From NCBI RefSeq assembly GCF_030384885.1, contig NZ_CP128613.1: a DNA stretch of 64,000 bases; one strand, 5' to 3'. A program made the translations under genes and the position numbers. Origin of the DNA: Escherichia coli. GTDB taxonomy: Bacteria > Pseudomonadota > Gammaproteobacteria > Enterobacterales > Enterobacteriaceae. The notes under the pieces were generated by a model. It was given only the letters and a program-made list of their open reading frames with translations. It did no database searches and was not told the DNA's origin. Positions 16,016-60,724 of this stretch are shown piece after piece; within the stretch, counting starts at the first letter, position 1; the number at the start of each line of letters is the position of its first letter.

Positions 16016-16255
<240 letters not shown>

Positions 16256-16752: not shown

Positions 16753-18714
16753 TTACCCTTTTCGCTTCGGCAATGTTTTCAGCAGCTCATCCGGACTAAC
16801 GGATGCCACTACGCTTCCCGGTAACGGCATTTTCAGTATGTGATTTTTGATTTTGCCAATGACGTGCATCTCACATGGGCGACAATCGAACTTTAGCGTT
16901 AATACTTCATCGCCATTAACCAGTTGCATTGGCGTCGCCTTCCAGCTTTTGATGTTACCTTTTGCCTGTTTCGGACACAGATTGAAGGCAAAGCGCAGAC
17001 AATGCTTGGTGATCATTACCGGCACTTCCCCCTTCTCTTCATGCGCTTCATACGCCGCATCAATCAGTTGCACACCATAGCGATGATAAAATTCACGCGC
17101 TTTGTGGTTGTAAACGTTCGCGAGGAAACTCAAATGCGTTTGCGGATAAACCGGCGCAGGGTCAGCAACCGGTTTACGACTGCCGCGCTGATAACTGGCA
17201 AGACGCGCAGCATCCAGCATTTCGGCGGCCTCACGGCGGAACTGATTTAACAGACTGTTCGGTACAAACAGCGCACCAGGCAAATTAATTTGCACATCGC
17301 GGGCGTAATAGAGGGTTTGCCCCAGCTTAGCCAGACCATCTTTCAGGTTATTAAGCGCTTTTTCGGCGTTATTAGCTTCGTCGAATTGTCCATCCAGCGT
17401 ATGCGTGACGCTGACGCCCTCTTCACTGGTCAGGGTCAGAATCAGTTGTTCCTGCCAGCCGCCCAGTTCAATGTCTACCGCTACGCGACGTTCGCTGGAT
17501 GTTTTGGTCAACGCCTGCTGCCAGTTATGGTCCAGATTACGATTAAGCGGATGATGCGGACGAATTTTATGCAAATCCGCAGGCATCTCATTTGGCCAGA
17601 CGCGGTACTGATTTTGCCCGGTTTTTTCGACTGTATTGGCGCGAAAGCCAACCACTTCACGTTTAATCATCACATTCAGACCATCGCCATTTGCTAACGG
17701 CTCGGTGACGGCAACATCGAGATGATCCTTCGCCACTTTTAATACTTCACCGACCGGCAGGCCGATAAACTTGGGGGAGTCGAACGCGCCGATATCCCCT
17801 TTACGGGCGTTAACAAAGTAGTCGGTACTGCCACGATGGAAGGTTTTTTCCGTCGACGGTACGAAGAAATGCTCGGTACGACCGGATGAAGCACGCGCCA
17901 GATCGCCACGTTCATCAATAATGGCGTCCAGCATTTGGCGATAATGCGCGGTGATATTCTTCACGTAGCTCATATCTTTGTAACGCCCTTCAATCTTGAA
18001 GGAGCGCACGCCAGCATCAATCAGCGCGCCAAGGTTAGCAGTCTGATCGTTATCTTTCATCGACAGCAGATGTTTTTCATAGGAAACCACCCGCCCCTGA
18101 TCGTCTTTCAATGTGTATGGCAAACGGCATGCCTGCGAGCAATCGCCACGGTTGGCGCTACGCCCTGTTTGCGCATGAGAAATGTAGCACTGACCAGAAT
18201 AGGCCACGCACAATGCACCATGAATAAAGAATTCAATGGTCGCGTCCGTGGCCTGGTGAATCGCGCGGATCTGCTCAAGATTCAGCTCTCGCGCCAGCAC
18301 AATCTGCGTAAAGCCAACATCAGAGAGGAACTTCGCTTTTTCTACTGTGCGAATATCGCACTGCGTACTGGCGTGCAGTTCAATCGGCGGAATATCAAGT
18401 TCCAGAATCCCCATATCCTGAACAATCAGCGCATCGACGCCGGTCTGGTAGAGGTCGGTAATCAGCCGTTGCGCAGGGTCCAGCTCATCATCATGCAAAA
18501 TGGTGTTAAGCGTGACGAAAATTTTTGCACCATAACGATGGGCAAACGGCACCAGTTCGGCAATATCTTTCAGGCTATTACTGGCATTATGACGGGCACC
18601 AAAACCAGGGCCGCCGATATAAACAGCATCGGCACCGTGCAAAATAGCTTCGCGGGCAATGGCGGCATCGCGTGCCGGGCTTAACAGTTCAAGTCGATGA
18701 GAAGATACGGTCAC
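16753..18714 (-). CDS. ydcP: Peptidase U32-family protein YdcP (RlhA, 23S rRNA 5-hydroxycytidine synthase)
   Basis: ORF 16753-18756; U32 collagenase-like sequence. GTG at 18712-18714 gives the remembered 653 aa; the first ATG would give 667 aa. Confidence 0.85.
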   Translation of the reverse strand: MTVSSHRLELLSPARDAAIAREAILHGADAVYIGGPGFGARHNASNSLKDIAELVPFAHRYGAKIFVTLNTILHDDELDPAQRLITDLYQTGVDALIVQDMGILELDIPPIELHASTQCDIRTVEKAKFLSDVGFTQIVLARELNLEQIRAIHQATDATIEFFIHGALCVAYSGQCYISHAQTGRSANRGDCSQACRLPYTLKDDQGRVVSYEKHLLSMKDNDQTANLGALIDAGVRSFKIEGRYKDMSYVKNITAHYRQMLDAIIDERGDLARASSGRTEHFFVPSTEKTFHRGSTDYFVNARKGDIGAFDSPKFIGLPVGEVLKVAKDHLDVAVTEPLANGDGLNVMIKREVVGFRANTVEKTGQNQYRVWPNEMPADLHKIRPHHPLNRNLDHNWQQALTKTSSERRVAVDIELGGWQEQLILTLTSEEGVSVTHTLDGQFDEANNAEKALNNLKDGLAKLGQTLYYARDVQINLPGALFVPNSLLNQFRREAAEMLDAARLASYQRGSRKPVADPAPVYPQTHLSFLANVYNHKAREFYHRYGVQLIDAAYEAHEEKGEVPVMITKHCLRFAFNLCPKQAKGNIKSWKATPMQLVNGDEVLTLKFDCRPCEMHVIGKIKNHILKMPLPGSVVASVSPDELLKTLPKRKG

Positions 18715-18786
18715 ATTCTTATCCAGTAGCTGAAAAATGGCGGCTATTTTAGCCACAAGCGCGACGTTGCGAAATAGTTTTCCCGC

Positions 18787-19323
18787 TTAACTGCGTGGGT
18801 AATGGATGAGGGAATGAAAATGTACGATTTGCTCCCCACCATTACGATAGACATGCGTAACGTCTGCAGCAAATCGAGCGCCTTTTCCACAATTAAGGCT
18901 CTGCCATTCACCATCAACGCACAGATCAAGTTGCCCATCAATGACGACAACATGTTCGATTACTCCCTTCTCATGGGGCGTCGATTCACTTATTGCACCG
19001 GGAGCCATCTGAATTGAGAAGTGTTCAAAGCAGAGTTGCGGATCATAAGGAAACAGCGAAGTGATCACCATCGCCTGCTGTTGCGGATCATAAACTGAAG
19101 GCGTAGCGGACTGCGGCGGAGAAATAAATGTCGAAAATGGCACATTCAACCCGGTGGCAATTTTCCATAATGTCGCGACCGTCGGGCTGGACTCATTACG
19201 TTCAATCTGCCCTAACATCGCTTTAGAAACCCCCGTCGCTTCTGCCAGTCGCGAAAGACTCCAGCCGCGCTGCTGACGTAGTTGTTTAAGTGTGGTGGAT
19301 AAAAAGCGAGTGAGATTTTCCAT
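18787..19323 (-). CDS. sutR: XRE-family HTH plus cupin regulator SutR (YdcN)
   Basis: 178-aa ORF with N-terminal HTH (LSRLAEATGVSKAMLGQIERNESSPT) and C-terminal cupin domain. Confidence 0.88.
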   Translation of the reverse strand: MENLTRFLSTTLKQLRQQRGWSLSRLAEATGVSKAMLGQIERNESSPTVATLWKIATGLNVPFSTFISPPQSATPSVYDPQQQAMVITSLFPYDPQLCFEHFSIQMAPGAISESTPHEKGVIEHVVVIDGQLDLCVDGEWQSLNCGKGARFAADVTHVYRNGGEQIVHFHSLIHYPRS

Positions 19324-19414
19324 GTGACTCCTCCGGCAAAGCGGAAGTTTATCACTTGTGCGTTATAACGGACAAATGCTACGGTACCTGTACGCTATAA
19401 CGCACGAGGTGACC

Positions 19415-20587
19415 ATGCGTCTGTTTTCTATTCCTCCACCCACGCTACTGGCGGGGTTTCTGGCGGTATTAATTGGCTACGCCAGTTCAGCGGCAATAAT
19501 CTGGCAAGCAGCGATTGTCGCCGGAGCCACCACTGCACAAATCTCTGGCTGGATGACGGCGCTGGGGCTGGCAATGGGCGTCAGTACGCTGGCTCTGACA
19601 TTATGGTATCGCGTACCTGTTCTCACTGCATGGTCAACGCCGGGCGCAGCTTTGCTGGTTACCGGATTGCAGGGACTGACACTTAACCAAGCCATCGGTG
19701 TTTTTATTGTCACCAACGCGTTAATAGTCCTCTGTGGTGTGACGGGATTATTCGCCCGTTTGATGCGTATTATTCCGCACTCGCTGGCAGCGGCGATGCT
19801 GGCCGGAATTTTGTTACGCTTTGGTTTACAGGCGTTTGCAAGTCTGGATGGTCAGTTTACGTTATGCGGTAGTATGTTGCTGGCGTGGCTGGCGACAAAA
19901 ACTTTTGCGCCGCGTTATGCGGTAATTGCGGCGATGATAGTTGGCATCGTAATCGTTATTTTACAAGGTGACGTTGTCACAGGGGATATTGCCTTTAAAC
20001 CCGTTCTCCCCGCTTATATTGCCCCTGAATTTTCGTTTGCTCACAGTCTGAGCGTTGCACTCCCCCTTTTTCTGGTGACGATGGCATCGCAAAACGCACC
20101 GGGTATTGCGGCAATGAAAGCGGCCGGGTATTCGGCTCCTGTTTCGCCGTTGATTGTATTTACTGGATTGCTGGCGCTGGTATTTTCCCCTTTCGGGGTT
20201 TATTCCGTCGGTATTGCTGCAATCACCGCAGCTATTTGTCAAAGCCCGGAAGCGCATCCGGATAAAGATCAACGTTGGCTGGCAGCTGCCGTTGCAGGCA
20301 TTTTTTATTTGCTCGCAGGTCTTTTTGGTAGTGCTATTACCGGGATGATGGCTGCCCTGCCCGTAAGTTGGATCCAGATGCTGGCAGGTCTGGCGCTGTT
20401 AAGTACCATTGGCGGCAGTTTGTATCAGGCGCTGCATAATGAGCGTGAGCGAGACGCGGCGGTGGTGGCATTTCTGGTAACGGCAAGTGGATTGACGCTG
20501 GTCGGGATTGGTTCTGCGTTCTGGGGATTAATTGCCGGAGGCGTTTGTTACGTGGTGTTGAATTTAATCGCTGACAGAAACCGATAA
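19415..20587 (+). CDS. ydcO: BenE-family inner membrane transporter YdcO
   Basis: ORF 19358-20587; start at MRLFSIPPPT (ATG 19415) gives ~390 aa; highly hydrophobic polytopic protein. Confidence 0.85.
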   Translation: MRLFSIPPPTLLAGFLAVLIGYASSAAIIWQAAIVAGATTAQISGWMTALGLAMGVSTLALTLWYRVPVLTAWSTPGAALLVTGLQGLTLNQAIGVFIVTNALIVLCGVTGLFARLMRIIPHSLAAAMLAGILLRFGLQAFASLDGQFTLCGSMLLAWLATKTFAPRYAVIAAMIVGIVIVILQGDVVTGDIAFKPVLPAYIAPEFSFAHSLSVALPLFLVTMASQNAPGIAAMKAAGYSAPVSPLIVFTGLLALVFSPFGVYSVGIAAITAAICQSPEAHPDKDQRWLAAAVAGIFYLLAGLFGSAITGMMAALPVSWIQMLAGLALLSTIGGSLYQALHNERERDAAVVAFLVTASGLTLVGIGSAFWGLIAGGVCYVVLNLIADRNR

Positions 20588-20589
20588 TA

Positions 20590-20620
20590 AAAAGCGCCAT
20601 CTTACGATGGCGCGGCTGGA
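20590..20620. terminator. Bidirectional hairpin terminator between convergent ydcO and ydcL
   Basis: gcgccatc-ttac-gatggcgc stem-loop, with a T-run on the minus strand (ttttattatc). Confidence 0.6.
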
Positions 20621-20621
20621 A

Positions 20622-21290
20622 TTACTTTTTGTTAACGTCAAACATAGTGGCATCGGTCGCCATGTCATCAATAACTTGCTTAATATTCTCGAAAGCCATT
20701 GGCGTACTTTCATTATTCAGGTCTTTACCTTCGCCCTGACGAACGACTTTGATAACCGGTTTATTAGTAGCTGCATCAATCAGCTCACCTTCAAAATACA
20801 GGCGAGTATCCATGGTACGGTGGCCCGTCGCCATTTGCGTCCCCGCGACCACTAATGCGACAGGAACCACTTCATAGAATTGCAGCCCTTCTTTGCTGGT
20901 ATCTACACCGGTAATGGCCCCACGGAAAATCAGACTACGCGGCCCAGCGGTGGTAACCAGTGGTTTACGCTGCGCAATCGCTTCTTTCATTTCGGTGTTG
21001 GTATAACTCAAAATTTTATCCAGAACTTTCTGCCCTACCTGGGTAGATGGTTTCGGTACCGGATAATAAGTGATTGGGTTCCAGACGATGCTGTCATATT
21101 TACTTTGATCAAAACTCGGGTCTACCCAACGTAAAACAGGTTTACCTGTTGCTGAGGTTGTTTCTTTTAAATCAGAGTAATTGTTTAAAAAACCAGAATA
21201 TTTATCTGGCTGGGTGATTTTAGAGGCACAACCAGACAGAGCCAACAAGCCGCATAAAGCTGCAACTTTCGCAATTGATGTGGTACGCAT
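20622..21290 (-). CDS. ydcL: Lipoprotein YdcL (DUF3313)
   Basis: 222-aa ORF with lipobox (LALSGCASK). Confidence 0.85.
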   Translation of the reverse strand: MRTTSIAKVAALCGLLALSGCASKITQPDKYSGFLNNYSDLKETTSATGKPVLRWVDPSFDQSKYDSIVWNPITYYPVPKPSTQVGQKVLDKILSYTNTEMKEAIAQRKPLVTTAGPRSLIFRGAITGVDTSKEGLQFYEVVPVALVVAGTQMATGHRTMDTRLYFEGELIDAATNKPVIKVVRQGEGKDLNNESTPMAFENIKQVIDDMATDATMFDVNKK

Positions 21291-21592
21291 GAATAGTTTC
21301 CTGAGATGATTATATTACTTTCTAAGTTATAGCAAAAAGCACCGCTTCGTGTTGTGGCAAAAAAAGTGTTGGTGAAAATAAATTTTTCAGCCCCTTTTCA
21401 GACGACATAGTCAATGCCGAAAAAGGGGCTAAGTCAATCATCAGTAGTTAAATTTCAGTAAGTTAAGCTGCTAAAAAACTTCGACTACTGTGATTAATTT
21501 CACATCCATTCGATAAAAAATATGCTTACCGAAAAGAAGAACAGTAGACCATCTCAGCGTGGGGAATTTTCACGCGCCTTGTTCTTACCAGG

Positions 21593-22186
21593 TTATTTTT
21601 TACGTGCCAGCATCGTGGCGAAACGCAGTTTAATCCGATTACCGTTGGCATCGGTGCGGTGCAACTCACCGACGTCTTCATTGTATTTCACCATCTCCCA
21701 GCCTTCGTAATATCGACGTAATTCTCCTTCTTTGAAGGCAAACGGGAAGCCGACGGTACATGGATAATCAGCGGTATCCATCGCCGCCACAATCAGGTTG
21801 TAACCACCAGGTTTAGTGCAACGTTGCATATTGGCAATAAGCCCAGGGATGGTTTTATCCTCAAGGAACATCAGCACCACAGTCGAAAGAATAAAATCGT
21901 ACTGCCCATCAAATGTGAAGTTATTCAGATCAACAACCCGGGTGTGTAAATTATCCAGATTTTCAATGGATTTAATCCGCTCGACGTTGGCGATACTCAT
22001 GGCATTTTTATCCCATGCGTCAACTTCATAACCATTGGCTGCCAGGTAAAGACTGTTACGACCATTGCCACAGCCCAGATCCAGCGTTTTACCGGCTTTA
22101 ACCACTTTCACCGCTTCCAGTACTTCAGAGTGTGTGCGGGTTAATTCATATTTTTCAGTAAAATAGTTTTCGTCACGGATGATCAT
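21593..22186 (-). CDS. tehB: Tellurite methyltransferase TehB (SAM-dependent)
   Basis: 197-aa ORF with SAM-binding motif ([15 protein letters not shown]); overlaps the tehA stop by 4 nt. Confidence 0.92.
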
Positions 22187-23175
22187 TCTTTGTCCTCAGC
22201 TTTCATTAAAACAGCGCGCTCTGTTTTGATTAACAATTTCCCCTGCATCAGAAGCGCGAAAGTACGGATAAGCAGTATTGCTATTATAAAATTGGTAAAG
22301 ATAAACAGCGGCACCGCCAGGGTATGGAAAAATCCATTATTGCTGCCACTCCCCAAATGCAAACCGGTGGTTGCCAGTGCGGAAACGCCGAACGAGAAAC
22401 TCCAGAATGAAGCATTAAATGGTTGGGAGAGATACCATGGCATCAGACGTAGCATAAACAGCAGTTGCAGCAGTCCATAACCGAAAAGCATTTTTGCCAG
22501 CGTGTCCCCCTCGCCGCCGTTGACGCTTAGCCAGGCACTACAGGCCACCAGCGCAGGAGCGAGCTGAATGCCGAGTGATGTCCGCAATGCCGTGGGTAAC
22601 TCTCCCGAACTGCGCAGACGCTGAAGGATCACCGGTTCCAGACTTAACCATGAGAAAACGCCTGCGCCTAAAAACACCAGACCGGCGTCGGTGTAGCCCA
22701 ATGCACCACAGGCCATTGCGCTGATAAAGTTGTTGGCAACTGTCGGCAGATACAGTCCAGGCGTGGTAGCTTCTTCAGGATGAGATCCGCGCCATAATCC
22801 CGCAGTTTGCCAGGCGGCATAAGCCAACTGAACCACGACACCAAAACTGAACAGGCATACCGCCAGTGGGCGAAACCACGGAACAAAACCAATCGCCACC
22901 AGCATCGTCGTTGCCGGAAACAAACTCACAAAACTGCTCATCACTGGATGGCGCACTTCCGCCAGCACGCTATGCGGAAAGCGTATGAGTCGGGTAATAA
23001 ATGCGCTAGTCAATAATCCCCAGATGATCATCGCCAGAATCACTAGCCCATCCCCTAACCAGTGGCTGACCTGCCAAACCTGGCTGGCATAGCGCCAGGC
23101 AAATCCCATCCCTATCGTCCCCAACACAATACCAAAGTAGCCTGCCGGCAAATTGAGCACTTTATCGCTCTGCAT
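22183..23175 (-). CDS. tehA: Tellurite resistance / dicarboxylate-type anion channel TehA
   Basis: ORF 22183-23283; start at [19 protein letters not shown] gives 330 aa; polytopic membrane protein. Confidence 0.9.
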
Positions 23176-23298
23176 CTTCTTACTCATTTTGTTTAATTTA
23201 TAAAGTATATTTGAAATACATTTTATGGAATTTTCTCGAGCATAGCCAGAGCCGCAGAATTTGCTACGGTTATAGTAAGTCACCTGTGGGAAAACGCT

Positions 23299-24278
23299 AT
23301 GCGCAAATATCGTCTAAGTGAAGAACAGCGAGCCTTTAGTTATCAGGATGATGGCACTAAAAAAAGTGTGTTATTATGGCAAATTATCGCCATGAGCGAT
23401 TTTAACGATGTGATAGCAGGAACCGCTGGCGGCTGGATCGATCGCGAAACGGTGTTAGCACAGGAAGGAAATTGCTGGATTTACGACCAGAATGCTATTG
23501 CGTTCGGCGGAACGGTGATTTCCGGTAATACGCGTATCACCGGCACCAGCGTCCTTTGGGGAGAGGTTTACGCAACGGATAACGTCTGGATCGATAATAG
23601 TGAAGTCAGTCAGGGTGCATATATAAGTGACAGTGTCACCATTCGTGACTCATTAGTTTGCGGTCAATGTAGAATATTTGGTCACGCTTAATTGATCAAC
23701 ATTCTATGATCGTCGCCGCGCAAGGCTTAACCTCCGACCATCAACTCCTGCTACAAATTTATGATCGCGCAAGGGTTAGCGCCTCGCGTATTGTCCACCA
23801 GGCACAAATTTATGGCGATGCCGTCGTCCGGTATGCTTTTATTGAACATCGCGCCGAAGTTTTTGATTTTGCCAGTATTGAAGGTAATGAAGAGAACAAC
23901 GTCTGGCTATGCGATTGCGCTAAAGTCTACGGTCACGCGCAGGTGAAAGCTGGCATAGAAGAAGATGCCATTCCGACAATTCATTACAGTTCGCAGGTAG
24001 CGGAATATGCCATTGTGGAAGGTAATTGTGTGTTAAAACATCATGTCTTGATTGGCGGAAAGGCAGTGGTACGTGGCGGACCGATTCTGCTCGACGAACA
24101 CGTTGTAATACAAGGTGAGAGCCGTATTACAGGTGCGGTGATAATTGAAAACCATGTGGAGTTGACCGACCACGCCGTCGTTGAAGCCTTTGATGGCGAC
24201 ACGGTTCATGTCCGTGGTCCAAAAGTCATTAACGGCGAAGAGCTCATTACGCGAACGCCGCTGGCAGGGTTATTGTGA
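23299..24278 (+). pseudogene. ydcK: ydcK, hexapeptide-repeat protein disrupted by a 1-bp frameshift
   Basis: Two adjacent ORFs (23299-23691 frame 1; 23706-24278 frame 3). Frame 1 ends ...CRIFGHA-TAA; frame 3 reads [14 protein letters not shown]... straight through the junction. The sequence gcttaattg would read G H A L I D Q if one more T were present. Combined span 980 nt, one short of a 981-nt (326 aa + stop) gene. Confidence 0.6.
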
Positions 24279-31342: not shown

Positions 31343-31558
31343 CGACTAAAAACCTCTTTGCGTCACATTTTTACAACAATTATTGCAGAGAAGATTAATG
31401 CCATTGGATTGAAGAAAGTGAGGAATGGTTAAACTGGCTAACCCGAATGACGAAAAATTCTGGAAAACAGCACGCTATTTCGTGAAGTGATTATTTTCGT
31501 CCCTAAGGAAACCTCATAGGATGCCTGCGGGTGCCCTTACTGCCCCCCTTTTTACGCT

Positions 31559-49394: not shown

Positions 49395-52300
49395 TTAGAA
49401 CGTTTTCTTGAAGTTCAGCATCACACCTTTATCGCTGATACCATCCTCTTTCCAGTGGTAAGCATCCAGATTCAGCGAGCTCTCTTTGCTGCTGTACTTC
49501 ACGCCGACGCTTGCCAGGCTGTTGATACCGCCGCCCTTTTGCCCATCATCGACATTAAAGTGCTGGCTGCCTGCGCCTGCCAGGCTTGCCGTGCGCTGGC
49601 TCTTCGTGTAGCTCAGGTTTGGCCCACCTTCCAGCGTGGCGTTCGCACTCCAGCCGTCTTTGCCTGCGTAGTCCAGCTTCAGCCCAACGATGCTGTCCAC
49701 CGCCGTTTCGCTGCCGCTGTTCATACTCAGGTTAAAGTCTCCGGCATTACGCTCCTGATAACCGCCTTCCAGCGTGTGACGCAGTTTCACACTCGCATAT
49801 GGCGTGATTTTCAGCCCTTCGCGCGGTTCAAAGGTTTTCGCCCCTTCGCTGCGGAACTCCAGGTACTGCTGTTTCACATTCGTGTCTGCCGTCTTACTGA
49901 TGTCGCCGTAAGCCACCGAACGGCTGCTGTCCAGTTGGTGGATATCGTAACGCAGCGCGTTATTCCAGCTCATACCGTTGTCAAAGGACATCTGATGCTT
50001 CAGGCCAAAGAACTGGCTGTAGCCGCCTGTAACACCGTTATCACCCGCTTTCTGCGCACCGTCGCCGTCCAGACGGGCGATACCGTACTCCAGGCTCATG
50101 GTCTGGTTTTCGCTCAGGTCGAGGGTTTTGCGCAGCGCCAGCATGTCGTACTCGGTATTATTCCCCAGCTCTGCACGCGGATCGCCTTTCGCCACCACGT
50201 TAAATGCCAGACCGTTGCCCATCTTCGGTGCGGCGTCTGCCAGCATACTAAAGCGATTGCTTAACACACGCGCTTCGCGGAATACCGTGGTCGCCTGGCT
50301 ACCGCTAATTTGCTTAAGTGCGCTGTTCAGCTCTGCAGTGGTGCCGACGTTCAGACTGGTATACAGCTCATTGTTGGTGTAACCCGCATCCAGCGCTTTT
50401 GCCACGTCATTCACTGAGGCATCCGTCGCCACATCGGTGTAGGCTTTTTTGCTCATGGTCACGTCAACGTTGCCGCTGGCGTCGGTACTGCCTGTCGCCT
50501 GCCAGACAACAGATGTCGAAGTGATCGCTTGCGCATCGGTCAGGTTGCTGCCTTGCACCACATCATCAAAGCTGACGGTTTTGTCCACCGTTCCCGCCGC
50601 AAAAGCGGTGTTGATCTCCACGCCATTCATACTGGCGTTATTGACCATCAGCTTACCGGCGCTACCGTCGGCGTTCGTCCCCACCACGTAACCATTGAGG
50701 TTGTTCATGCCATCGTTGCGGCTAACGGAAGAAGAATGGCTGCCGTCGTATGGCGTAATGGTGGGTTCTTCCGGCGCGGTAAAGTCGACATAGTGTACTT
50801 CCGTACCGTCTCCCCCTTCGCCACTGCCCTCTATCGGCGTGCCAGATTGTTTAATCAATCCGGAACCATTCACGTTGTCGTCAATATAAACAGTGCCGTT
50901 GTTAACAATATGACCATTGCTCCCGAGCTTGCTGAAGGCGAAGGAGTTATTGGCGTAGATATTAATCGTACCGTTGTTTTCAACCACACCATCCGCTTTG
51001 GCGTCCGATGCTAATTGCATCCCAATCATGCCTGTTTGTGTCGTGCCTTCGCTGCCGACATTGATGGTGCCATTGTTAACCATTTTTGCGCTGCCGTGCG
51101 CATTCATGGCGATGGTATTATTTTTATCAATATTGATAGTGCCATCGTTAATTGCCCGGCTACCGGCGTTATTATTTGACGTCGTAACCTGGCCGTTAAT
51201 CACACCTGTCGTACCGTTATACAATGTATGCCCATTACCGCCGGTAGCGATATCAGCATCCCCATTCACTGTACCCCAGTTGTTGAAATGCCCAGCCCAA
51301 AGTCCGTTATCAAGAAGATCGACAACACCACCGTCCAGGTTATTGAAGGTCGCGTTTTTATCAACCGAACCACTATGAACCGTTCCTGCGTTATTGAATG
51401 TGGCTGCGGCAGAAAAATTCACTTTATTGACCGTTCCACCCGCTTCGTTATTCATCACGGCAGAAGCAGAGGCTCCCTTCCATGCTGTTACCGTCCCGGC
51501 GTTATAAAACGTACTGGCCCATTGTTCAACAGTGTTGATAGTGCCGGAGTTGTTGATAACAGAACCCGCAACGGTTGTACCTACTTGCCCGGTCACTACA
51601 CCTTCGTTAGTAAACACGCCGCCATCCACAGAAACGGTTTTTGTCGTGCCCTGGTTGGTGTATTCCCCACCCGTTGCAATATCAACCTCGTTTATACTGC
51701 CCGTGGTTTCATTGACCAGATGACCAAAGTCAGCCACGGTGACAGGCCCTCCGGTTACGGTACCCGCGTTGGTTACCAGGGTTTCAGCGGTCGCTATCAT
51801 ATCAGTAGAACCACCGGATGAAGACAGGTTAAGCGTCTCCCCCTCGGCCGTAATGATATCGCCGTTTCTCCAGCTTAATGAAACGAACCCATCAGTCGGG
51901 TTATAGGCGTTACTGTCCTGGCATATACCAAAAGTACAGATGGTTCCGTAATTAACGATAGTCCCGCTGCCATCGTTATAGAATGCCTGCCCGTTTTCAG
52001 CATTGATATTGATGATGCCCGTCTGGTCATTAACTGCGGTACCGCCACTATAAACTGCCATACCAACGAGTTTATTCGCCCCCAGGCTGCCATCAAAGTT
52101 CTCATTCTTCTCGAGGTTGATGGTACCCTGATTAACCACCGTATTATCGGTACCGTATGCTGCCATCCCAGCACCTGCATTATAGATAGTGATAGTACCT
52201 GACTGCTGGTTAAGCGCGGTAGCATTTTGCCTTGCGCCACCATAACTGTCCGTTCCTACCGCCATGCCGACACCATAATTTTTTGCATTGCTGCTGCCGA

Positions 52301-54932
52301 TATCGTTGCGTAAGGTGGTGGTATCGTTTTCATCTACCCAGATCGTATCCAGGGTAATCTGGCCTGCATTTGTTACAGTCGAATGATTAATCGCCAGCAT
52401 ACCGACATTACCCCGGCCATACATATCAATAACGCCATTCGCACCATTTAGCGCTGAACCATTATCCTGAGCAGTCATGCCCGTCATACTAACAACGCCA
52501 CTATTAAAAACCGTGGGATCGCTCAATGACAAAGCATTGAACATATTCAAAACGCTATACTGTTCCATCACTTTAGCCGTAATGGTACCGTTATTCACCG
52601 CCGTCCCACCTTCGGAGCTAAAGAAGGCTTTATTACCGGATTCCGGCGATACATCAATTGCGGATGAGTAATCATATTGCTCAAGTAAAACATTACCGTT
52701 ATTCGTTGCAACGGAACCCGTACCCGATATATTGGTAAACCCCATATTCCAGAGCTCAACAAACCCGTTATTGATAACTTGTGACCCTGAACTGACGCTA
52801 AGTATTTCTGATGGGTTATTGCCATAATGCGCGTAAACGTCAATATCCTTCATACTGAAGGTCGCATCCTCCGTGATTTCAAGAAAAGCATTATTGCTTA
52901 CCTGAATAATATTTGCATAGCCCAGCGGAAATTGACCGCTGACTGAGGAGTCTCCTCCCAGATAAACCGACGAATGACCATCAACCTTAATGAGCGGAAT
53001 ATCACCATAGCCCGTACGACTTGCGGCTGGGACTGAACCATCCGTCATAGCCGATGCTTCACCGAAAAGTTGAATACCCCCCCGTAAGGTAACGCTATTT
53101 TCATCCCCTGAAATCACCAACCCACTGATGTTTTCTTGGCTACCATTGACAGTACTATAGGTGTGATGCGCAAGTTCGCTATCAACCTTCAATGTTAACT
53201 GACCATCCAGCGTCAGGTCATTATTGTTACCCGAAACACGAATACCTACGGAAGAATCGAAAAAGTGTTCTGCTGCATTATCAGTCGTCTGATCTTTATC
53301 CACCATAATATTACCGGTAATTTCAACTTCATTGCCATCACCGGCCACATTTACCCCTGTAGCAACACTGCCAGTCACATTAAGCTCATTCGTTGCCAGC
53401 GTCATGGTGTTATTATTTCCAGACACATCCAGACCGGTTGAATAATCCCCAACATCCATACGGCCAGCCAGAGAAATTTCGCCCCCATCTCCAACAACGC
53501 GAATCCCGGTACTGGCATTTCTGGCAGTGATATCCCCCACATTGATAAGAGTAGAATGATTACCCTCAATCAGAATCCCTGTCGCATTGGCCTCTGAACT
53601 ACCATTACTGACGGAAATATCCCCCCTGTTAATGAACGTCGACGCATCACCACTGAGAGAAACACCCAGCGAATTTTCATCCACGACCGTTATATTGCCT
53701 TTGTTGCTGACGATCGCGCCATTACCCTCAACATCAATACCCCGAGCAGCATTGCTAACGTATAAATCCCCTTCCTGTATAACCGTCGCATTATTACCAA
53801 CGATTTTGCTGCCCGTTGAATTTTGCCCATCAACCGTCATATGTCCTTTATTATCGGTCCTGACATCATTACCGATAATAAGGGCCCCTGTTCCACCATT
53901 ATTGACGGTGGAGTCGCCAGTGTTATTTAAGATTGTACGATCGCCATTAACGATAACCGCCGTGCCAGCATCGACCACCGTCTGACCGTTATTATTAATG
54001 GTTATATTATCGCCGGTCAGGATACCGACCACCGAATCTTCACCGACAGCCTCTGTTTTACCCTCGTTTGTCAGCGCAATGTTGTCACCATTAATCATCA
54101 TCACTGTACCGCCATTCAGGGCCGTGTTGCCGCCCTGGTCAGTGATAATTGCATCATTAACGGTAATTATTCTGCCCGTTGTTCCATCAGACACGACGCT
54201 GGCTAACTGTGTGACGTGGAGTTTACCTTCGTCATCATAGCGCCATTCCGTATCACCAGTGGTACTCACTCCACTAAAGATGGCGGTATGAGTCTCTTCA
54301 TGGTTTTCCCACTCAGTCACAATGGTTTTTCGGCCATCTTTTGCCGTCAGCGTGTAGCTACCATCTTCATTTTGGGTATAAGTGAACGTCGCCCCGCGAA
54401 TCTTCAAGGTTTGCGCGTCCTTGTCCCATGTCACATTGTTTTCAAAGACAACGGGTTCTGTTCTCGGGGGGTCAACATCATCATCGCTATTGTCGGGTGG
54501 AGTAACATCACCGCCTTTATCTGGGGGGGTAACATCATCGGCGTTATCTGGCTTTACAGGTATATCTGAATCTTCATCACTGGGAAGGGGTGGCGGTAGA
54601 GAGCCATTATCATCTGGCGGTATGGGCTGGGAAAAAGAAGAGTGAGCAGAATGATCATTGTCATGAGACAATTCAATCACTGCGAGTGTTGCCAGTACCG
54701 CCGTGGCACCTAATGCCAGTAACGAGCTGAAACCATTATTTGTAACAACAGCACATTTTTCTGGCACTGTTTTCAACTTCATTGACGGTCGGGCGTGCCC
54801 TTCTGACTGACATGTCATTTGAGAGCTTCTGCGCATACTGTCTGCACTCTCGCCTTCTGTTATTTCCGCCCCCCAGCTTTGGCCACTTAACGCTATAGCG
54901 ATACACGCTGATAATAACGTTTTCTTTTGCAT
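49395..54932 (-). CDS. ydbA: Autotransporter YdbA, uninterrupted 1845-aa reading frame (beta-helical passenger plus C-terminal beta-barrel translocator)
   Basis: Signal peptide; Pro/Asp-rich N-terminal repeats; long Gly/Asn/Thr-rich degenerate repeats typical of beta-helix passengers; C-terminus ends ...MLNFKKTF (terminal aromatic) as in autotransporter barrels. One continuous ORF, no IS sequences inside. Confidence 0.85.
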   Translation of the reverse strand: MQKKTLLSACIAIALSGQSWGAEITEGESADSMRRSSQMTCQSEGHARPSMKLKTVPEKCAVVTNNGFSSLLALGATAVLATLAVIELSHDNDHSAHSSFSQPIPPDDNGSLPPPLPSDEDSDIPVKPDNADDVTPPDKGGDVTPPDNSDDDVDPPRTEPVVFENNVTWDKDAQTLKIRGATFTYTQNEDGSYTLTAKDGRKTIVTEWENHEETHTAIFSGVSTTGDTEWRYDDEGKLHVTQLASVVSDGTTGRIITVNDAIITDQGGNTALNGGTVMMINGDNIALTNEGKTEAVGEDSVVGILTGDNITINNNGQTVVDAGTAVIVNGDRTILNNTGDSTVNNGGTGALIIGNDVRTDNKGHMTVDGQNSTGSKIVGNNATVIQEGDLYVSNAARGIDVEGNGAIVSNKGNITVVDENSLGVSLSGDASTFINRGDISVSNGSSEANATGILIEGNHSTLINVGDITARNASTGIRVVGDGGEISLAGRMDVGDYSTGLDVSGNNNTMTLATNELNVTGSVATGVNVAGDGNEVEITGNIMVDKDQTTDNAAEHFFDSSVGIRVSGNNNDLTLDGQLTLKVDSELAHHTYSTVNGSQENISGLVISGDENSVTLRGGIQLFGEASAMTDGSVPAASRTGYGDIPLIKVDGHSSVYLGGDSSVSGQFPLGYANIIQVSNNAFLEITEDATFSMKDIDVYAHYGNNPSEILSVSSGSQVINNGFVELWNMGFTNISGTGSVATNNGNVLLEQYDYSSAIDVSPESGNKAFFSSEGGTAVNNGTITAKVMEQYSVLNMFNALSLSDPTVFNSGVVSMTGMTAQDNGSALNGANGVIDMYGRGNVGMLAINHSTVTNAGQITLDTIWVDENDTTTLRNDIGSSNAKNYGVGMAVGTDSYGGARQNATALNQQSGTITIYNAGAGMAAYGTDNTVVNQGTINLEKNENFDGSLGANKLVGMAVYSGGTAVNDQTGIININAENGQAFYNDGSGTIVNYGTICTFGICQDSNAYNPTDGFVSLSWRNGDIITAEGETLNLSSSGGSTDMIATAETLVTNAGTVTGGPVTVADFGHLVNETTGSINEVDIATGGEYTNQGTTKTVSVDGGVFTNEGVVTGQVGTTVAGSVINNSGTINTVEQWASTFYNAGTVTAWKGASASAVMNNEAGGTVNKVNFSAAATFNNAGTVHSGSVDKNATFNNLDGGVVDLLDNGLWAGHFNNWGTVNGDADIATGGNGHTLYNGTTGVINGQVTTSNNNAGSRAINDGTINIDKNNTIAMNAHGSAKMVNNGTINVGSEGTTQTGMIGMQLASDAKADGVVENNGTINIYANNSFAFSKLGSNGHIVNNGTVYIDDNVNGSGLIKQSGTPIEGSGEGGDGTEVHYVDFTAPEEPTITPYDGSHSSSVSRNDGMNNLNGYVVGTNADGSAGKLMVNNASMNGVEINTAFAAGTVDKTVSFDDVVQGSNLTDAQAITSTSVVWQATGSTDASGNVDVTMSKKAYTDVATDASVNDVAKALDAGYTNNELYTSLNVGTTAELNSALKQISGSQATTVFREARVLSNRFSMLADAAPKMGNGLAFNVVAKGDPRAELGNNTEYDMLALRKTLDLSENQTMSLEYGIARLDGDGAQKAGDNGVTGGYSQFFGLKHQMSFDNGMSWNNALRYDIHQLDSSRSVAYGDISKTADTNVKQQYLEFRSEGAKTFEPREGLKITPYASVKLRHTLEGGYQERNAGDFNLSMNSGSETAVDSIVGLKLDYAGKDGWSANATLEGGPNLSYTKSQRTASLAGAGSQHFNVDDGQKGGGINSLASVGVKYSSKESSLNLDAYHWKEDGISDKGVMLNFKKTF

Positions 54933-55578
54933 GAGAAATCCTTTTCAATGAATGACATTTCAAATAATAAAATATGAGTAACAGATAAGAAATAGCCACA
55001 GGCTGTGTCATGATTTAATGTCTGCTCTTGAAATTTTATTTAGCAATCCCAGAACATTCAACTTAATTAGTATTTCGAAACCTCAATGCAGACACATAAA
55101 AAACAAATTATTCGATTACTTAGGCTATTTGTTGCATTAATACACATCCTCTAACAATAATCAGACAAAAAGCAATGTCAGCGTCAAATTGGGTAGCTGA
55201 TTCATATTACTGATCACTCCGTAAATTCATTCATCGTGAAAATATTAACATTTAAACCATGTTCCATTTAATCAACCCACTGAAAATCTGGAGGTTATCT
55301 ACTGCGGTTTGTTGTTGACTGCCCCTGATAGGATTACCAGGCGTTGACAGAAGATGAGGCTTGCAAGATGCTAAAAACAATGTGGTGTTACAAGCAATCC
55401 CATAAACCTCGTAACTTCACTTAAATGAGCGATGCCGTCCATATTTGGGTTGACTATAAAAATCCTTAATATTGAGGTTGATGATGATATTCATGATGGC
55501 GTTGGAAAAATAGGACACCCATAAAATATCTATACAGCCTTTAAATTAAATCATTGAAATATCGCTGTTGCATAGTGC

Positions 55579-55905
55579 TTATTTTTGCAACCATTTTCCG
55601 TTAATTCCCTGCACATATTCCCCCGGTTTGGCCCGAGCTACAAGCTTTTGTCCGGCAAGCTTCGCGATATCATCTACCGATACATTATTTTGCTTTGCCA
55701 GTTGTTGATAACTCACTTTACGTGCGGCATTAATCTCGGTTACTAATTTCTCTGTTTCAGCATCCGTTTTCAACGCAACCAAATAACCATAAAATGTTTC
55801 ACCTACCCGCCCCTGAGTTCTGGCTTCATCCAGAGTCAATGCCATTACATTGCTGCTTACCAGCCCAACAAGAAACGCACAAAGAAGTAATGTTTTCTTC
55901 ATCAT
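55579..55905 (-). CDS. ydbL: YdbL (DUF1318) periplasmic protein
   Basis: ORF 55579-55983; start at MKKTLLLCAFLVGLVSSNVMA gives 108 aa with signal peptide. Confidence 0.82.
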   Translation of the reverse strand: MMKKTLLLCAFLVGLVSSNVMALTLDEARTQGRVGETFYGYLVALKTDAETEKLVTEINAARKVSYQQLAKQNNVSVDDIAKLAGQKLVARAKPGEYVQGINGKWLQK

Positions 55906-55909
55906 CGCC

Positions 55910-56095
55910 TCAGAAAAGATCGCTACGAGTTTCAAGCAGCTCTTCGACATCTTTGTCTGCCTTGATGATGATCTCATGCTCAATTTTAACGTTCATATTG
56001 ATAGTGATCGGTTCCTTAGGTGCAGCGACTTCAATGCGAGGCGTACAGCCAACCAGCATAAAAGATGACGTCAACGCAGCCAGTAAAATTTTCAT
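55910..56095 (-). CDS. ynbE: Small lipoprotein YnbE
   Basis: 61-aa ORF with lipobox (MLVGCT); overlaps the ydbH stop by 4 nt. Confidence 0.82.
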   Translation of the reverse strand: MKILLAALTSSFMLVGCTPRIEVAAPKEPITINMNVKIEHEIIIKADKDVEELLETRSDLF

Positions 56096-58731
56096 TGTTT
56101 TTCCTCACACCTTTTTCCTTGCGGACAGCCATTTTCCGGCAGACGCGCGTTCTGCTCCAACCATGCCTGGAGATTATCGCCAAAGCGTAAACTGCGCCAC
56201 AGGGTAAAAATATTCTCTTCATGATGGTAATTAAGGTTTACCGTACCACTTTTACCGTCGACGCGACTGGTACCTGTAATATTGGCCTGCATGGTTAACA
56301 CACCGAGATTATCTAAATTAATTTTTGTCGATGAACGGCTAATTTCCATATAGCGCAACCAGTTAATCGCAGAACCCGCGGTCATATTGTCTTTCACCAC
56401 CGCATCTGCGGTGTCTTTATCCAGCCGCAAGGTCATTGGTCCGCTATTTGCCAGCCAGCCGTCTTTAACTATCCATTTTTCATTGTTCAGCCATAAAGGC
56501 AATGCCCCACTAAATGCCCCGGACATGGCGAATTGTTTCGGATTGACGGCGCTAACCAGTTCGCTGGATGAGAGATTATTCAGCCGCAACAGCGCCGGGT
56601 CATGTTGCGGCATGCGTAATTGTTTCATCAGCACGTTACCGCCTAACACATCGACGCTAACATCGGTCAACAACAATGGTTCGTCTTCACTCCACGGATA
56701 ACGCCCTTGCAAATCAGCCGTAATATTTTTCGCTGTCACAAGATTAATCACTTCGGCAATTCGCAACGTAACGGGGCCGCGAGTCCCCAGATGCCAGGCT
56801 CCATCGGCAAAACGGAAAGGCAGGACAAAATCGACACCGTTAACCTGATTATCTGGCATCCAGGCACTACCGCCTTTCAACACACCGTGCCCTCCCGCGC
56901 GGAATCCTTGTTCAGGCGCAGCAGAAAATGCGACCTGGGCATACAGTTCGCCATCGCGTAAGTTCATCTTCCAGTCGGGTGGCACCAGCGGCTGGAATAC
57001 GGTCAGTGATTGTTTAGGCCACCAGGCGTTACCGCGCAGACGAATACCGTCCCAGCGACCATTTACCCGAACCGGGCCAATCTCACCAGCATGTAAATCG
57101 CCTTTAAAGAGGAAATACGTCGGATCGCGTCCATCGACGCTAAATTTTAAGGTTGATGGCGGTAACACACTGCCACCCGTGAACAGCGTTTGCCCGGCGT
57201 CCAGTGACAGCGCGCCGCTAAAGGAGGGATGCTGTGCGTCACGTACCCAGACGACGGGCTTGTCGAGAATTAATCGCGGCTTTTCTACCGTCATCGTACC
57301 GTATTGTAACTGGTCGAAACCGGTTGAGAGATCGGTCAGCGTAATCGTGCTGTCATGCCACTCACCTTTTCCTGCGACATCCCAGGTGGCATTCATCGGT
57401 GTAAAACTCCCTTTTCCCCAGTAGCGCCACTGCCAGCGGCCAGCGTCAGGGAGAAAATCATTCGCCAGCCCATCCATATGCAGTACGAAATCGCCCAGTT
57501 CATTTTCATGCGCCTGCAAAATGGCCTGCAAACGCCCGTCAACACCACGTTGGGTGACTTTTACACCCGCTAAAGGCCAGCGGATTTCATCGATGTCCAG
57601 CGAATCGATGACTCTTCCCTTCGAACGTAATAACGCGCCTGGCTCAAAGGCCAGCGTTGGGTCAGTCAGACTTCCGCTTAGCTGCGCAGGTAAACGGGCA
57701 TATAAAATGAGGTCCGCCTGTTTCGCTTCACCGGTCAGTTGCAAAGGCAGCTGGCTGTTATCCATACTTAATTTTCCTGGGCCAAAATTTAGCACCGCGT
57801 TGCCCTTACCCGCTTGCCCCTGGGTCAGCACACTCAGTCGTCCGCTGACCAGAGCGTTCTCAAGCCCTGCCTGCCAGTTGTCGACTTTGACACCCAGTCG
57901 TCCACTCAAAGGAAAACCTGCATACGGCCAGCTCCAGCGACCATCGCTTACGGTCAATTGTTGGCGAGTAATTTGCCACGGCAGATCGAGCAACGGATCG
58001 CCGTTATCCCGTGCCAGCACAATCAATTGCCCGCTATTTTCCTGCCAGTCCAGCTCGGCATCCACCAGTGAAGGCTCCTGCGGCAAGTTTAACGTCGCAG
58101 TAGCATGACCACTTACAGGAAGTCCATCCGGCACTAGCGGCATAGTAAATTCCCCCACCAGTTTAACTGGCGGCTGATTTTCAAACGCGACGACATCCAG
58201 TTCGCTGACTGTAAGTTGTTGCCCTTTCAGCTGGCCTTGAAATTTAACTTTTTCGCCCTGATAACGCAGTTGCTGGATATCGGAGTTTAATGCGAGAGAG
58301 AGTTTTCCCTGCCATTCCTGCCAGGGAGAAAAAATCAGTTTATCGATATTGATCCAGGTGTTAGGCAACATGGCCTGCCACTGCGCGAGGGTTTTTGGAG
58401 CGGCTGGCGATTGCTCCGTCTGCGGCAATTTCGCCAGACAAGCAGAGTCAAGTTCTACCGTGCCGACGTTCAATAACCAGCGGCTGGGATGAGAAAGGCT
58501 GGCGTTTGTGATATGTGCAAGCTGACAATCGCCCACCAGATAACGGAGATCGGGAATGATTAAACCTTTACGCGTAATGCGTGGGCTTTCATCTAATGCA
58601 ATACGTGTCCCGAGCGGTAGCCAGATGCCCGCCAGCGTGGGAACCCACAAGCCGAGCGTCATCAGCAGCGTCAACGGCACAAGAATAATCAGTAATAACA
58701 GCGCGAGAACGGCTTTATATTTACCCAGCAT
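56092..58731 (-). CDS. ydbH: AsmA/TamB-like envelope protein YdbH
   Basis: 879-aa ORF with N-terminal membrane anchor (MLGKYKAVLALLLLIILVPLTLLMTLGLW); AsmA-like family by established knowledge. Confidence 0.88.
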   Translation of the reverse strand: MLGKYKAVLALLLLIILVPLTLLMTLGLWVPTLAGIWLPLGTRIALDESPRITRKGLIIPDLRYLVGDCQLAHITNASLSHPSRWLLNVGTVELDSACLAKLPQTEQSPAAPKTLAQWQAMLPNTWINIDKLIFSPWQEWQGKLSLALNSDIQQLRYQGEKVKFQGQLKGQQLTVSELDVVAFENQPPVKLVGEFTMPLVPDGLPVSGHATATLNLPQEPSLVDAELDWQENSGQLIVLARDNGDPLLDLPWQITRQQLTVSDGRWSWPYAGFPLSGRLGVKVDNWQAGLENALVSGRLSVLTQGQAGKGNAVLNFGPGKLSMDNSQLPLQLTGEAKQADLILYARLPAQLSGSLTDPTLAFEPGALLRSKGRVIDSLDIDEIRWPLAGVKVTQRGVDGRLQAILQAHENELGDFVLHMDGLANDFLPDAGRWQWRYWGKGSFTPMNATWDVAGKGEWHDSTITLTDLSTGFDQLQYGTMTVEKPRLILDKPVVWVRDAQHPSFSGALSLDAGQTLFTGGSVLPPSTLKFSVDGRDPTYFLFKGDLHAGEIGPVRVNGRWDGIRLRGNAWWPKQSLTVFQPLVPPDWKMNLRDGELYAQVAFSAAPEQGFRAGGHGVLKGGSAWMPDNQVNGVDFVLPFRFADGAWHLGTRGPVTLRIAEVINLVTAKNITADLQGRYPWSEDEPLLLTDVSVDVLGGNVLMKQLRMPQHDPALLRLNNLSSSELVSAVNPKQFAMSGAFSGALPLWLNNEKWIVKDGWLANSGPMTLRLDKDTADAVVKDNMTAGSAINWLRYMEISRSSTKINLDNLGVLTMQANITGTSRVDGKSGTVNLNYHHEENIFTLWRSLRFGDNLQAWLEQNARLPENGCPQGKRCEEKQ

Positions 58732-58938
58732 GGGTAGTTAATATCCTGATTTAGCGAAAAATTAAGCATTCAATACGGGTATTGTGGCATGTTTAACCGT
58801 TCAGTTGAAGGTTGCGCCTACACTAAGCATAGTTGTTGATGAATTTTTCAATATCGCCATAGCTTTCAATTATATTTGAAATTTTGTAAAATATTTTTAG
58901 TAGCTTAAATGTGATTCAACATCACTGGAGAAAGTCTT

Positions 58939-59928
58939 ATGAAACTCGCCGTTTATAGCACAAAACAGTACGACAAGAAGTACCTGCAACAGGTGAACGA
59001 GTCCTTTGGCTTTGAGCTGGAATTTTTTGACTTTCTGCTGACGGAAAAAACCGCCAAAACCGCCAATGGCTGCGAAGCGGTATGCATTTTCGTAAACGAT
59101 GACGGCAGCCGCCCGGTGCTGGAAGAACTGAAAAAGCACGGCGTTAAATATATCGCCCTGCGCTGTGCCGGTTTCAATAACGTCGACCTTGACGCAGCAA
59201 AAGAACTGGGGCTGAAAGTAGTCCGTGTTCCAGCCTATGATCCAGAAGCTGTTGCTGAACACGCCATCGGTATGATGATGACGCTGAACCGCCGTATCCA
59301 TCGCGCATATCAGCGTACGCGTGACGCCAACTTCTCTCTGGAAGGTCTGACCGGCTTTACCATGTATGGCAAAACGGCAGGCGTTATCGGTACTGGTAAA
59401 ATCGGTGTGGCGATGCTGCGCATTCTCAAAGGTTTTGGTATGCGTCTGCTGGCGTTCGATCCGTATCCAAGTGCGGCGGCGCTGGAACTCGGTGTGGAGT
59501 ATGTCGATCTGCCAACCCTGTTGTCTGAATCAGACGTTATCTCTCTGCACTGCCCGCTGACACCGGAAAACTACCATCTGTTGAACGAAGCCGCCTTCGA
59601 TCAGATGAAAAATGGCGTGATGATCGTCAATACCAGTCGCGGTGCATTGATTGATTCTCAGGCGGCAATTGAAGCGCTGAAAAATCAGAAAATTGGTTCG
59701 TTGGGTATGGACGTGTATGAAAACGAACGCGATCTGTTCTTTGAAGATAAATCCAACGACGTAATCCAGGATGACGTATTCCGTCGTCTGTCTGCCTGCC
59801 ACAACGTGCTGTTTACCGGGCACCAGGCATTCCTGACAGCAGAAGCTCTGACCAGTATTTCTCAGACTACGCTGCAAAACTTAAGCAATCTGGAAAAAGG
59901 CGAAACCTGCCCGAACGAACTGGTTTAA
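58939..59928 (+). CDS. ldhA: Fermentative D-lactate dehydrogenase (NAD-dependent)
   Basis: 329-aa D-2-hydroxyacid dehydrogenase with NAD-binding GVIGTGKIG; N-terminus MKLAVYSTKQYDKKYLQQVNESFGFELEFFDF. Confidence 0.93.
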   Translation: MKLAVYSTKQYDKKYLQQVNESFGFELEFFDFLLTEKTAKTANGCEAVCIFVNDDGSRPVLEELKKHGVKYIALRCAGFNNVDLDAAKELGLKVVRVPAYDPEAVAEHAIGMMMTLNRRIHRAYQRTRDANFSLEGLTGFTMYGKTAGVIGTGKIGVAMLRILKGFGMRLLAFDPYPSAAALELGVEYVDLPTLLSESDVISLHCPLTPENYHLLNEAAFDQMKNGVMIVNTSRGALIDSQAAIEALKNQKIGSLGMDVYENERDLFFEDKSNDVIQDDVFRRLSACHNVLFTGHQAFLTAEALTSISQTTLQNLSNLEKGETCPNELV

Positions 59929-59933
59929 TCTTG

Positions 59934-59965
59934 CCGCTCCCCTGTACGCCAGGGGAGCTTATTCA
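59934..59965 (+). terminator. Intrinsic terminator downstream of ldhA
   Basis: gctcccctg-tacgc-caggggagc hairpin followed by ttattc. Confidence 0.6.
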
Positions 59966-60038
59966 GATAATCCCCAAAGATATTTCATCCTCTATTCTTA
60001 AAATATTCCTCAGTCAGAAACCGTAATTGAGAACCACA

Positions 60039-60461: not shown

Positions 60462-60724
60462 TAGCTGCCACAGCTCCCGGCGGCAAGTGACTGTTCGCTA
60501 CAGCGTTTGCCGTTGGGTAATGCACACATCCCAATCGCCGTACCATCCAGTTGACGGGCAACAGAAAGCGAACCGCCGATCATTGCACAATTTGCTTCTC
60601 CACTACTGGACATCGACGCTTTTAAACCTGGCGCTACGTGCGCCGCAGTCGCCTGCTGAACAGGTTCACTACTACACGCCGACAATAATAAAGCGGCACA
60701 CCCTACCCAAAACGCTGCTCGCAT
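60458..60724 (-). CDS. ydbJ: DUF333 lipoprotein YdbJ
   Basis: 88-aa ORF with lipobox (LLLSACSS); convergent with hslJ, stops overlap by 4 nt. Confidence 0.82.
   Translation of the reverse strand: MRAAFWVGCAALLLSACSSEPVQQATAAHVAPGLKASMSSSGEANCAMIGGSLSVARQLDGTAIGMCALPNGKRCSEQSLAAGSCGSY

Follow-up and report, generated by a model that had tools for sequence, protein, structure and literature searches.

Insertion sequences that contain tnpB frequently have TTAT and TCAA as their left and right cleavage motifs, respectively (PMC9956272). According to the preprint by Meers et al. (bioRxiv 10.1101/2023.03.14.532601), excision of IS200/IS605 elements rejoins the flanks exactly, yielding a "donor joint," and complexes of TnpB with its guide RNA cut this donor joint via the same AT-rich motif that is used by TnpA. 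The TnpB of IS609 has been named in a list of purified orthologues (PMC12781874). In the literature, we found no description specific to the IS609 target site or to insQ/ydcO at the locus considered here.

The closest described counterpart of this locus is the ydcL-IS609-ydcO region of Escherichia coli K-12. As the original prediction had stated, K-12 has insQ (ydcM) of IS609 between ydcL and ydcO, and the annotation of K-12 BW2952 lists insQ together with a tnpA pseudogene. The insQ gene of BW2952 is intact and encodes a protein of 402 aa annotated as "RNA-guided endonuclease InsQ/TnpB family protein," in which the Pfam domains OrfB_IS605, TNB, and HTH were detected.

The E. coli DNA analyzed here (a stretch of 64 kb, hereafter the window) has the same two genes without the element. 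The original prediction held that ydcO and ydcL converge across a gap of 34 bp that contains a single hairpin with an 8-bp stem and no IS. All of this was confirmed: the coordinates are exact in the raw sequence and in the list of open reading frames, no transposase-like ORF lies between the two genes (ORFs of 17500-24000), and the stem is perfect in 8 of 8 pairs. The features of the junction are as follows:

19415 to 20587, + strand: ydcO, coding sequence of a BenE-family transporter (ORF list; Pfam BenE, 1.9e-160; RefSeq annotation)
20557 to 20586, - strand: 30 nt that come next to the target motif on its 3' side and are antisense to the end of ydcO (flank comparison with K-12)
20586 to 20587, no strand: empty IS609 point, inside the ydcO stop codon, TA/A (BLAST breakpoints, junction sequences)
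20587 to 20591, - strand: TTTAT, the IS609 target (TTAT, transposon-adjacent motif), directly 5' of the insertion point (five IS609 copies)
20588 to 20621, no strand: spacer between ydcO and ydcL, 34 bp (raw sequence, ORF list)
20589 to 20593, - strand: T5 tract (AAAAA on the + strand), bordering the 3' side of the hairpin as read on the strand of ydcL (terminator scan)
20594 to 20613, - strand: putative terminator hairpin, arms 20594-20601 and 20606-20613 (GCGCCATC/GATGGCGC), loop 20602-20605
20622 to 21290, - strand: ydcL, coding sequence of a DUF3313 lipoprotein-like protein (ORF list; Pfam DUF3313, 2.1e-62; RefSeq)

The YdcO protein of the window ends with ...DRNR, followed by the stop codon TAA at 20585-20587 (+ strand), and the stop codon of ydcL occupies 20622-20624 (TTA as written on the + strand). 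The start codon of ydcO is uncertain, with GTG 19358 in the mechanical ORF and the equivalents of 19376 or 19415 in the RefSeq homologues, as judged from the annotation of a 100%-identical genome and of other strains. An Rfam scan of 20300-20900 revealed no known sRNA; its sole match, to MicX, was at chance level (16 bits, with the gathering score being 75; E = 0.5). We consider it highly probable that ydcO and ydcL natively converge across this 34-bp interval, which would comprise a Rho-independent terminator of ydcL, i.e., a GC-rich 8-bp hairpin with a U-tract on the - strand, with the ydcO stop codon adjoining the far side of this U-tract.

The comparison with K-12 shows the same gene order and orientation (rlhA/ydcP-sutR-ydcO and, convergently, ydcL-tehB-tehA-ydcK), an identical T-tract, and a hairpin with one difference in the loop (TAAC in K-12 and TTAC in the window, + strand). 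The two loci differ by a clean insertion of 1,748 bp in K-12 (positions 1753-3500 of the BW2952 sequence L001), outside of which the flanks are collinear. It has no target duplication, and its flanks abut at window 20586/20587. K-12 does not have the 34-bp junction of the window, since IS609 is located there. The insertion point lies one base outside of 20588-20621, i.e., inside the ydcO stop codon and not in the spacer. The stop codon of K-12 ydcO has been rebuilt from TAA to TAT-TGA with bases from the right end of IS609, and therefore the K-12 protein ends with ...RNRY and is longer by one IS-derived Tyr. In K-12, the element parts ydcO from the hairpin by 1.75 kb. The flanks of the window differ from those of K-12 by 3.3% on the ydcL side (96.7% identity) and by 6.1% on the ydcO side (93.9% identity).

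No trace of an element was revealed in the window itself. The best blastn matches of IS609 and IS200C to the 64 kb were 13-25 nt long with E values of at least 0.09, the IS609 end-hairpin motif is absent from the window, and neither tnpA nor tnpB nor end hairpins of an IS609 or another IS200/IS605 element are present.

Apart from this junction, several other differences from K-12 were observed. Over the approximately 50 kb that are collinear, the window has 94-97% identity to K-12, an unusually low value for E. coli. In the junction region, strain 2013C-4282 is 100% identical to the window, and an identity of at least 99% is reached in only 13 of 5,416 genomes. Within ydcO, the segment 19735-20034 forms a mosaic patch with approximately 84.6% identity to other E. 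coli and 92% identity to a cryptic Escherichia (L006), while the ydcO segments beside it have 95-97% identity to E. coli, which points to either an old import by recombination or a polymorphism that has long persisted. A 1.3-kb segment between the equivalents of patD and yncL (7602-8936) is not found in K-12 and includes a 269-aa ORF (7895-8704, - strand), the C-terminal half of which we take, from reading the sequence, to be hexapeptide-repeat acetyltransferase-like. Two stretches of K-12 with toxin genes are missing from the window: at 16254, 444 bp with hicA and the 5' portion of hicB (a toxin-antitoxin pair of type II), and at 31535-31542, approximately 344 bp with the type I toxin locus that comprises hokB and yncP. 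Beyond 50710 (50711-64000), no megablast match to the corresponding K-12 region was obtained; in K-12, this region contains the paa operon, preceded by an autotransporter gene that IS2 and IS30 have split. In the window, positions 49395-54932 are occupied by a single uninterrupted ORF of 1,845 aa on the - strand.

The hairpin of the spacer, GCGCCATC-TTAC-GATGGCGC, consists of 8 perfect pairs, 6 of them G-C, with a 4-nt loop, and it begins 8 nt after the ydcL stop codon. It dominates the predicted folds of both strands, with -16.9 and -16.3 kcal/mol and z-scores of -2.6 and -3.4. A scan for consensus terminators listed the hairpin on the - strand with the tail TTTTTATTAT. On the + strand, the hairpin is followed by GGCTGGAATTAC and by no U-tract, so that the U-tract is found solely on the strand of ydcL. 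This indicates a terminator of ydcL rather than a symmetric bidirectional one; the original prediction of a terminator between both genes is accordingly narrowed to ydcL. In comparison with Rho-independent terminators known from convergent gene pairs, the hairpin is similar in its GC-rich 8-bp stem, 4-nt loop, T5 tail, and compensatory changes, and it differs in that the U-tract is one-sided, with only an upstream A-tract on the ydcO side. The number of terminator-like sites found by the terminator scan in the region was not enriched (8 vs 3.7 +/- 2.3), and the case for the hairpin therefore relies on its conservation across species.

This conservation was assessed in two sets of sequences. 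A protein-guided scan with one genome per species provided 80 loci encoding relatives of YdcL, and in 69 of these 80 species a perfect GC-rich hairpin of at least 6 pairs was found no more than 60 nt past the stop codon of ydcL, usually followed by a T-run. The stem sequence varies by genus, with types such as GCGCCATC, GCACCATC, GGCCTGC, GGGGGAG, and GGGAGC, and in most of the 80 species the hairpin and T-run keep the same position even where other genes lie downstream. For covariation, we used 26 unselected sequences of Escherichia, Salmonella, and Citrobacter (25 distinct); the subset with perfect hairpins was left out of these statistics because it had been selected for pairing. In the 25 distinct sequences, 100% of the 200 cells of the stem were paired, while the loop was variable. 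Compensatory changes were found at pair 3 (G-C to A-U in 11 sequences) and at pair 6 (A-U to G-C in E. albertii). The observed covariation score was matched by 0 of 500 shuffles, and pairing dropped to 16-59% when the register was slid. At the level of sequence comparison, conservation of this kind is typical of a functional stem-loop, here one that keeps its place behind ydcL, and the hairpin is accordingly predicted to terminate ydcL transcription.

The tight convergent junction is not universal in the family. A distance of approximately 2 kb between ydcL and ydcO was observed in most Citrobacter, Enterobacter, Klebsiella, and related genera, with two genes between them (e.g., L010, 3707-5670; most of L010-L083) that encode a membrane protein of 302 aa and a regulator of 289 aa. 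From reading their sequences, we take the former to be EamA/DMT-like and the latter to be of the AraC type. Both genes are missing in Escherichia, in S. enterica subsp. diarizonae and arizonae, and in a few others (few Citrobacter, Atlantibacter, "Enterobacter pulveris"). The tight arrangement is therefore that of Escherichia and Salmonella, and not necessarily that of all Enterobacteriaceae.

The target of IS609 could be defined from five independent copies, namely the one at the ydcO site and those beside yedK, a gene for a DUF3251 protein, a TetR gene, and yfeD. All five start with CCGGTGCGCC, finish with GGATGTCAA, and lie directly 3' of (T/C)TTAT, in line with the left cleavage motif TTAT surveyed in PMC9956272. 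On the - strand of the window, the sequence at the equivalent point (marked by a slash) is GCGCTTTTTAT/TATCGGTTTC, i.e., TTTAT/TATCGG. This corresponds to an unoccupied IS609 target, with the motif on the 5' side, no residual IS sequence, and occupation without duplication in other genomes, and the last bases of the predicted terminator U-tract double as this target. The 30 nt of the window past the slash are identical (30/30) to the flank of the right end of IS609 in K-12 and would be the predicted match of the guide RNA of a K-12-type InsQ.

The junction of the window resembles the donor joint described by Meers et al. (bioRxiv 10.1101/2023.03.14.532601) in that TTTAT abuts the sequence of the right-end flank. 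It differs in that the joint of the window is most likely primary, i.e., never occupied, and in that the window is without IS609. We looked for the sequence features that a substrate of InsQ would presumably need, a motif and a guide match of approximately 16-20 nt, and found TTTAT and the 30/30-nt match as candidates for them. By analogy with the donor joint, an active complex of a K-12-type InsQ with its guide RNA would be expected to recognize the junction of the window.

The distribution of the junction states was determined in 5,426 complete E. coli genomes by a megablast search with window 20200-21000. The region was found in 5,416 of them and was unbroken in only 2,135; in the remaining genomes the alignment is interrupted at query position 387/388, equivalent to 20586/20587 of the window, and at 50/51 in a junction query of 100 bp. 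Three such 100-bp junction queries, with a genome counted at a coverage of at least 80%, gave the following states, the sum of which slightly exceeds the genome total because a few genomes were counted twice:

Empty junction: 2,046 genomes, approximately 38%
Junction of ydcO with the IS609 right end: 3,265 genomes, approximately 60%
Junction of ydcO with IS200C: 122 genomes, approximately 2%

Irrespective of the site, 5,015 of the 5,426 genomes contain IS609, and the median number of matching places in a genome is two. In seven sampled empty alleles, including that of O157:H7, the RefSeq annotation gives the 34-bp spacing in all cases. The empty junctions of O157:H7 and of some 2,000 complete genomes share with the window the 34-bp spacer, the hairpin, the absence of an IS, and the convergence of ydcO and ydcL, and they differ from it in divergence only, being 95.9-98.6% identical over 801 bp (100% in strain 2013C-4282). 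A further variant was observed in an O121 strain, which has IS609 and, in addition, a ydcL gene that contains an element of the IS3 family. Whether or not IS609 occupies this site is therefore an ordinary and already known difference, visible in the RefSeq annotation of thousands of genomes.

The original prediction had also considered the IS-free state as probably ancestral, and several comparisons point in the same direction. Among the 80 species representatives, no IS609 tnpB was found beside ydcL. The hairpin runs directly into ydcO in three cryptic species of Escherichia with 88-89% identity to the window, and S. enterica subsp. diarizonae has an uninterrupted ydcL-hairpin-ydcO arrangement with an essentially full-length ydcO. 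In S. enterica subsp. arizonae only a fragment of ydcO remains, and in E. albertii the hairpin is kept with a compensatory change and is followed by a ydcO remnant. We also built local neighbor-joining trees of the flanks, which are not a genome phylogeny (19-22 sequences, outgroup-rooted; ydcL flank, 2.9 kb; ydcO flank, 1.7 kb). In these trees, the first of the E. coli alleles to branch off is that of the window, and the alleles with IS609 form a shallow crown cluster nested among the empty ones. The flank divergence from K-12 of 3.3% and 6.1% indicates that the window is not a recent excision derivative. Taken together, the outgroups, the flank trees, and the divergence argue for a derived insertion and an IS-free state that is most likely ancestral. 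Because of the two genes that separate ydcL and ydcO in Citrobacter, Enterobacter, Klebsiella, and others, "ancestral" holds only relative to IS609 within Escherichia.

The bases beside the hairpin have received other elements of the same family. In Escherichia sp. MOD1-EC7003, a 46-bp sequence, CCAGTGCGCCTTATATCCCCGTCCTTCAGTGCGTGGAGGATGCCAA, is located at the equivalent of window 20586/20587 (L004, 3705-3750) and matches the left end of IS609 fused to its right-end hairpin (39/46 identical). A deletion after this remnant joins a short 3' piece of ydcO to the 3' end of sutR, so that ydcO and most of sutR are gone. In the tree of the ydcL flank, MOD1-EC7003 has a basal position relative to the alleles of E. 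coli, and elements of the IS609 type have therefore visited the site outside the crown group. Since the remnant is far more diverged than its flanks, we read it as an independent visit by a relative of IS609, an old shared insertion being the less probable reading. In addition, IS200C (approximately 709 bp; L003, 1893-2597, and L084) lies within or next to the T-tract at 20589-20593 in 122 complete genomes. It is at most 5 bp from the IS609 point and represents a second element of the IS200/IS605 family at the same spot.

A shared mutation in tnpA was considered as a marker for a single origin of the ydcO-site copies, and it failed since the lesions are heterogeneous. The comparison included eight copies at the ydcO site (L001, L002, L085, L097-L101) and copies elsewhere (L086, L087, L089). 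Seven of the eight ydcO-site copies have four different tnpA lesions (a stop at aa 96, a stop at aa 76, a 5-nt gap, and a 1-nt gap), and the eighth (strain 35) has no in-frame stop in tnpA, yet is annotated as incomplete. Three of these lesions (the stop at aa 76 and the 5-nt and 1-nt gaps) recur in IS609 copies at other loci. The tnpB gene is annotated as intact in seven of the eight copies and is frameshifted in one (EC0885). This pattern suggests gene conversion between IS609 copies or mobilization of the ydcO-site copy in trans. Owing to the heterogeneity of the lesions, the evidence for a single origin comes from the flank trees only.

The best explanation of the junction is that the site is unoccupied and most probably was never occupied, to which we assign a probability of roughly 0.9 on the basis of the sequence comparisons. 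Other readings were weighed against it. Draft assemblies commonly lose IS elements, and the missing IS could be an artefact of a collapsed or skipped repeat; given that the junction is continuous with both stop codons and the hairpin intact, that it is 100% identical to the complete genome of strain 2013C-4282, and that an identical 34-bp junction occurs in 2,046 complete genomes, such an artefact is scarcely credible. It is also very improbable that the hairpin, instead of being a terminator, belongs to the REP palindromes or was left behind by an old IS200/IS605 element as its subterminal hairpin. The ends of IS200/IS605 elements and REP elements are likewise short GC-rich hairpins, and three different insertions of this family lie within 5 bp of this one. 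However, the hairpin is single-copy in the 64-kb window even with 2 mismatches permitted, i.e., a search of the window for REP/BIME repetition gave one match, and it is unrelated to the end hairpins of IS609 (CCCCATCC.../CCACGTCC...). Its retention with a T-run after the ydcL stop codon in most of the 80 species, the covariation of the stem with a variable loop, and the canonical T5 tail are likewise features that argue against a repeat or a relic.

More weight should be given to the possibility that the site is secondarily empty, i.e., that an ancestral IS609 was precisely excised by TnpA (the "peel" step) and left a seamless donor joint. As IS200/IS605 excision religates the flanks exactly (bioRxiv 10.1101/2023.03.14.532601), sequence alone cannot prove that a site was never occupied. 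Such a history could accommodate the IS609-like remnant at the identical point in the deep-branching MOD1-EC7003, as well as O157:H7 (L092, L088), which has an empty site with flanks that cluster with those of the IS609 alleles and a copy of IS609 with intact tnpA (TnpA protein WP_000604943.1) inside a TetR-family gene. For O157:H7, either precise excision or a split of the lineage just before the insertion would account for these data. On the other hand, an ancestral IS609 would require one gain and several independent losses, as opposed to two gains, and it finds no counterpart in the other species, whether in the 80 representatives without IS609 tnpB beside ydcL or in the uninterrupted junctions of the three cryptic Escherichia and S. 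enterica subsp. diarizonae. The window, as the deepest E. coli branch, is 3-6% away from the occupied alleles; the ends of the MOD1-EC7003 remnant are only 39/46 identical to IS609 while its flanks are at approximately 95-96%, which suggests a different, independently inserted relative; and tnpA is defective in every ydcO-site copy for which the annotation was read (8 of 9 strains). We thus regard secondary loss as improbable, and a site that has never been occupied is preferred for the window.

Overall, judged by its sequence, the locus is an ordinary predicted intrinsic terminator between convergent genes combined with an ordinary unoccupied target of the IS200/IS605 family. What remains mildly interesting is that three apparently independent events of this family (IS609 in the crown group, the IS609-like element of MOD1-EC7003, and IS200C) fall within 5 bp beside the terminator hairpin. 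This led us to the assumption that IS200/IS605 elements may repeatedly use the bases between the hairpin and the stop codon of ydcO as a landing pad, and that reuse of the exact IS609 point could be explained by homing guided by InsQ/TnpB; we consider this assumption speculative and rather unlikely. Likewise, a contribution of InsQ-guided homing to the reuse of the exact point has a low probability. If it were true, the guide RNA of InsQ would direct homing into empty alleles after DNA exchange, beyond the choice of the target motif alone, and empty alleles of the window type would be natural substrates of an RNA-guided nuclease encoded by K-12.

In conclusion, the finding matters little alone, as the empty state is a common allele of E. 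coli (approximately 38%). From the window, the sequence of the K-12 insQ locus before the insertion can be read exactly, with its TTAT target, the absence of duplication, and the stop codon that the IS has rebuilt, and the comparison shows that in K-12 the IS has added a residue to YdcO and that the hairpin next to the gene is lost. As a natural target, the empty allele is readily available for testing whether the InsQ/TnpB of E. coli is an active guided nuclease.
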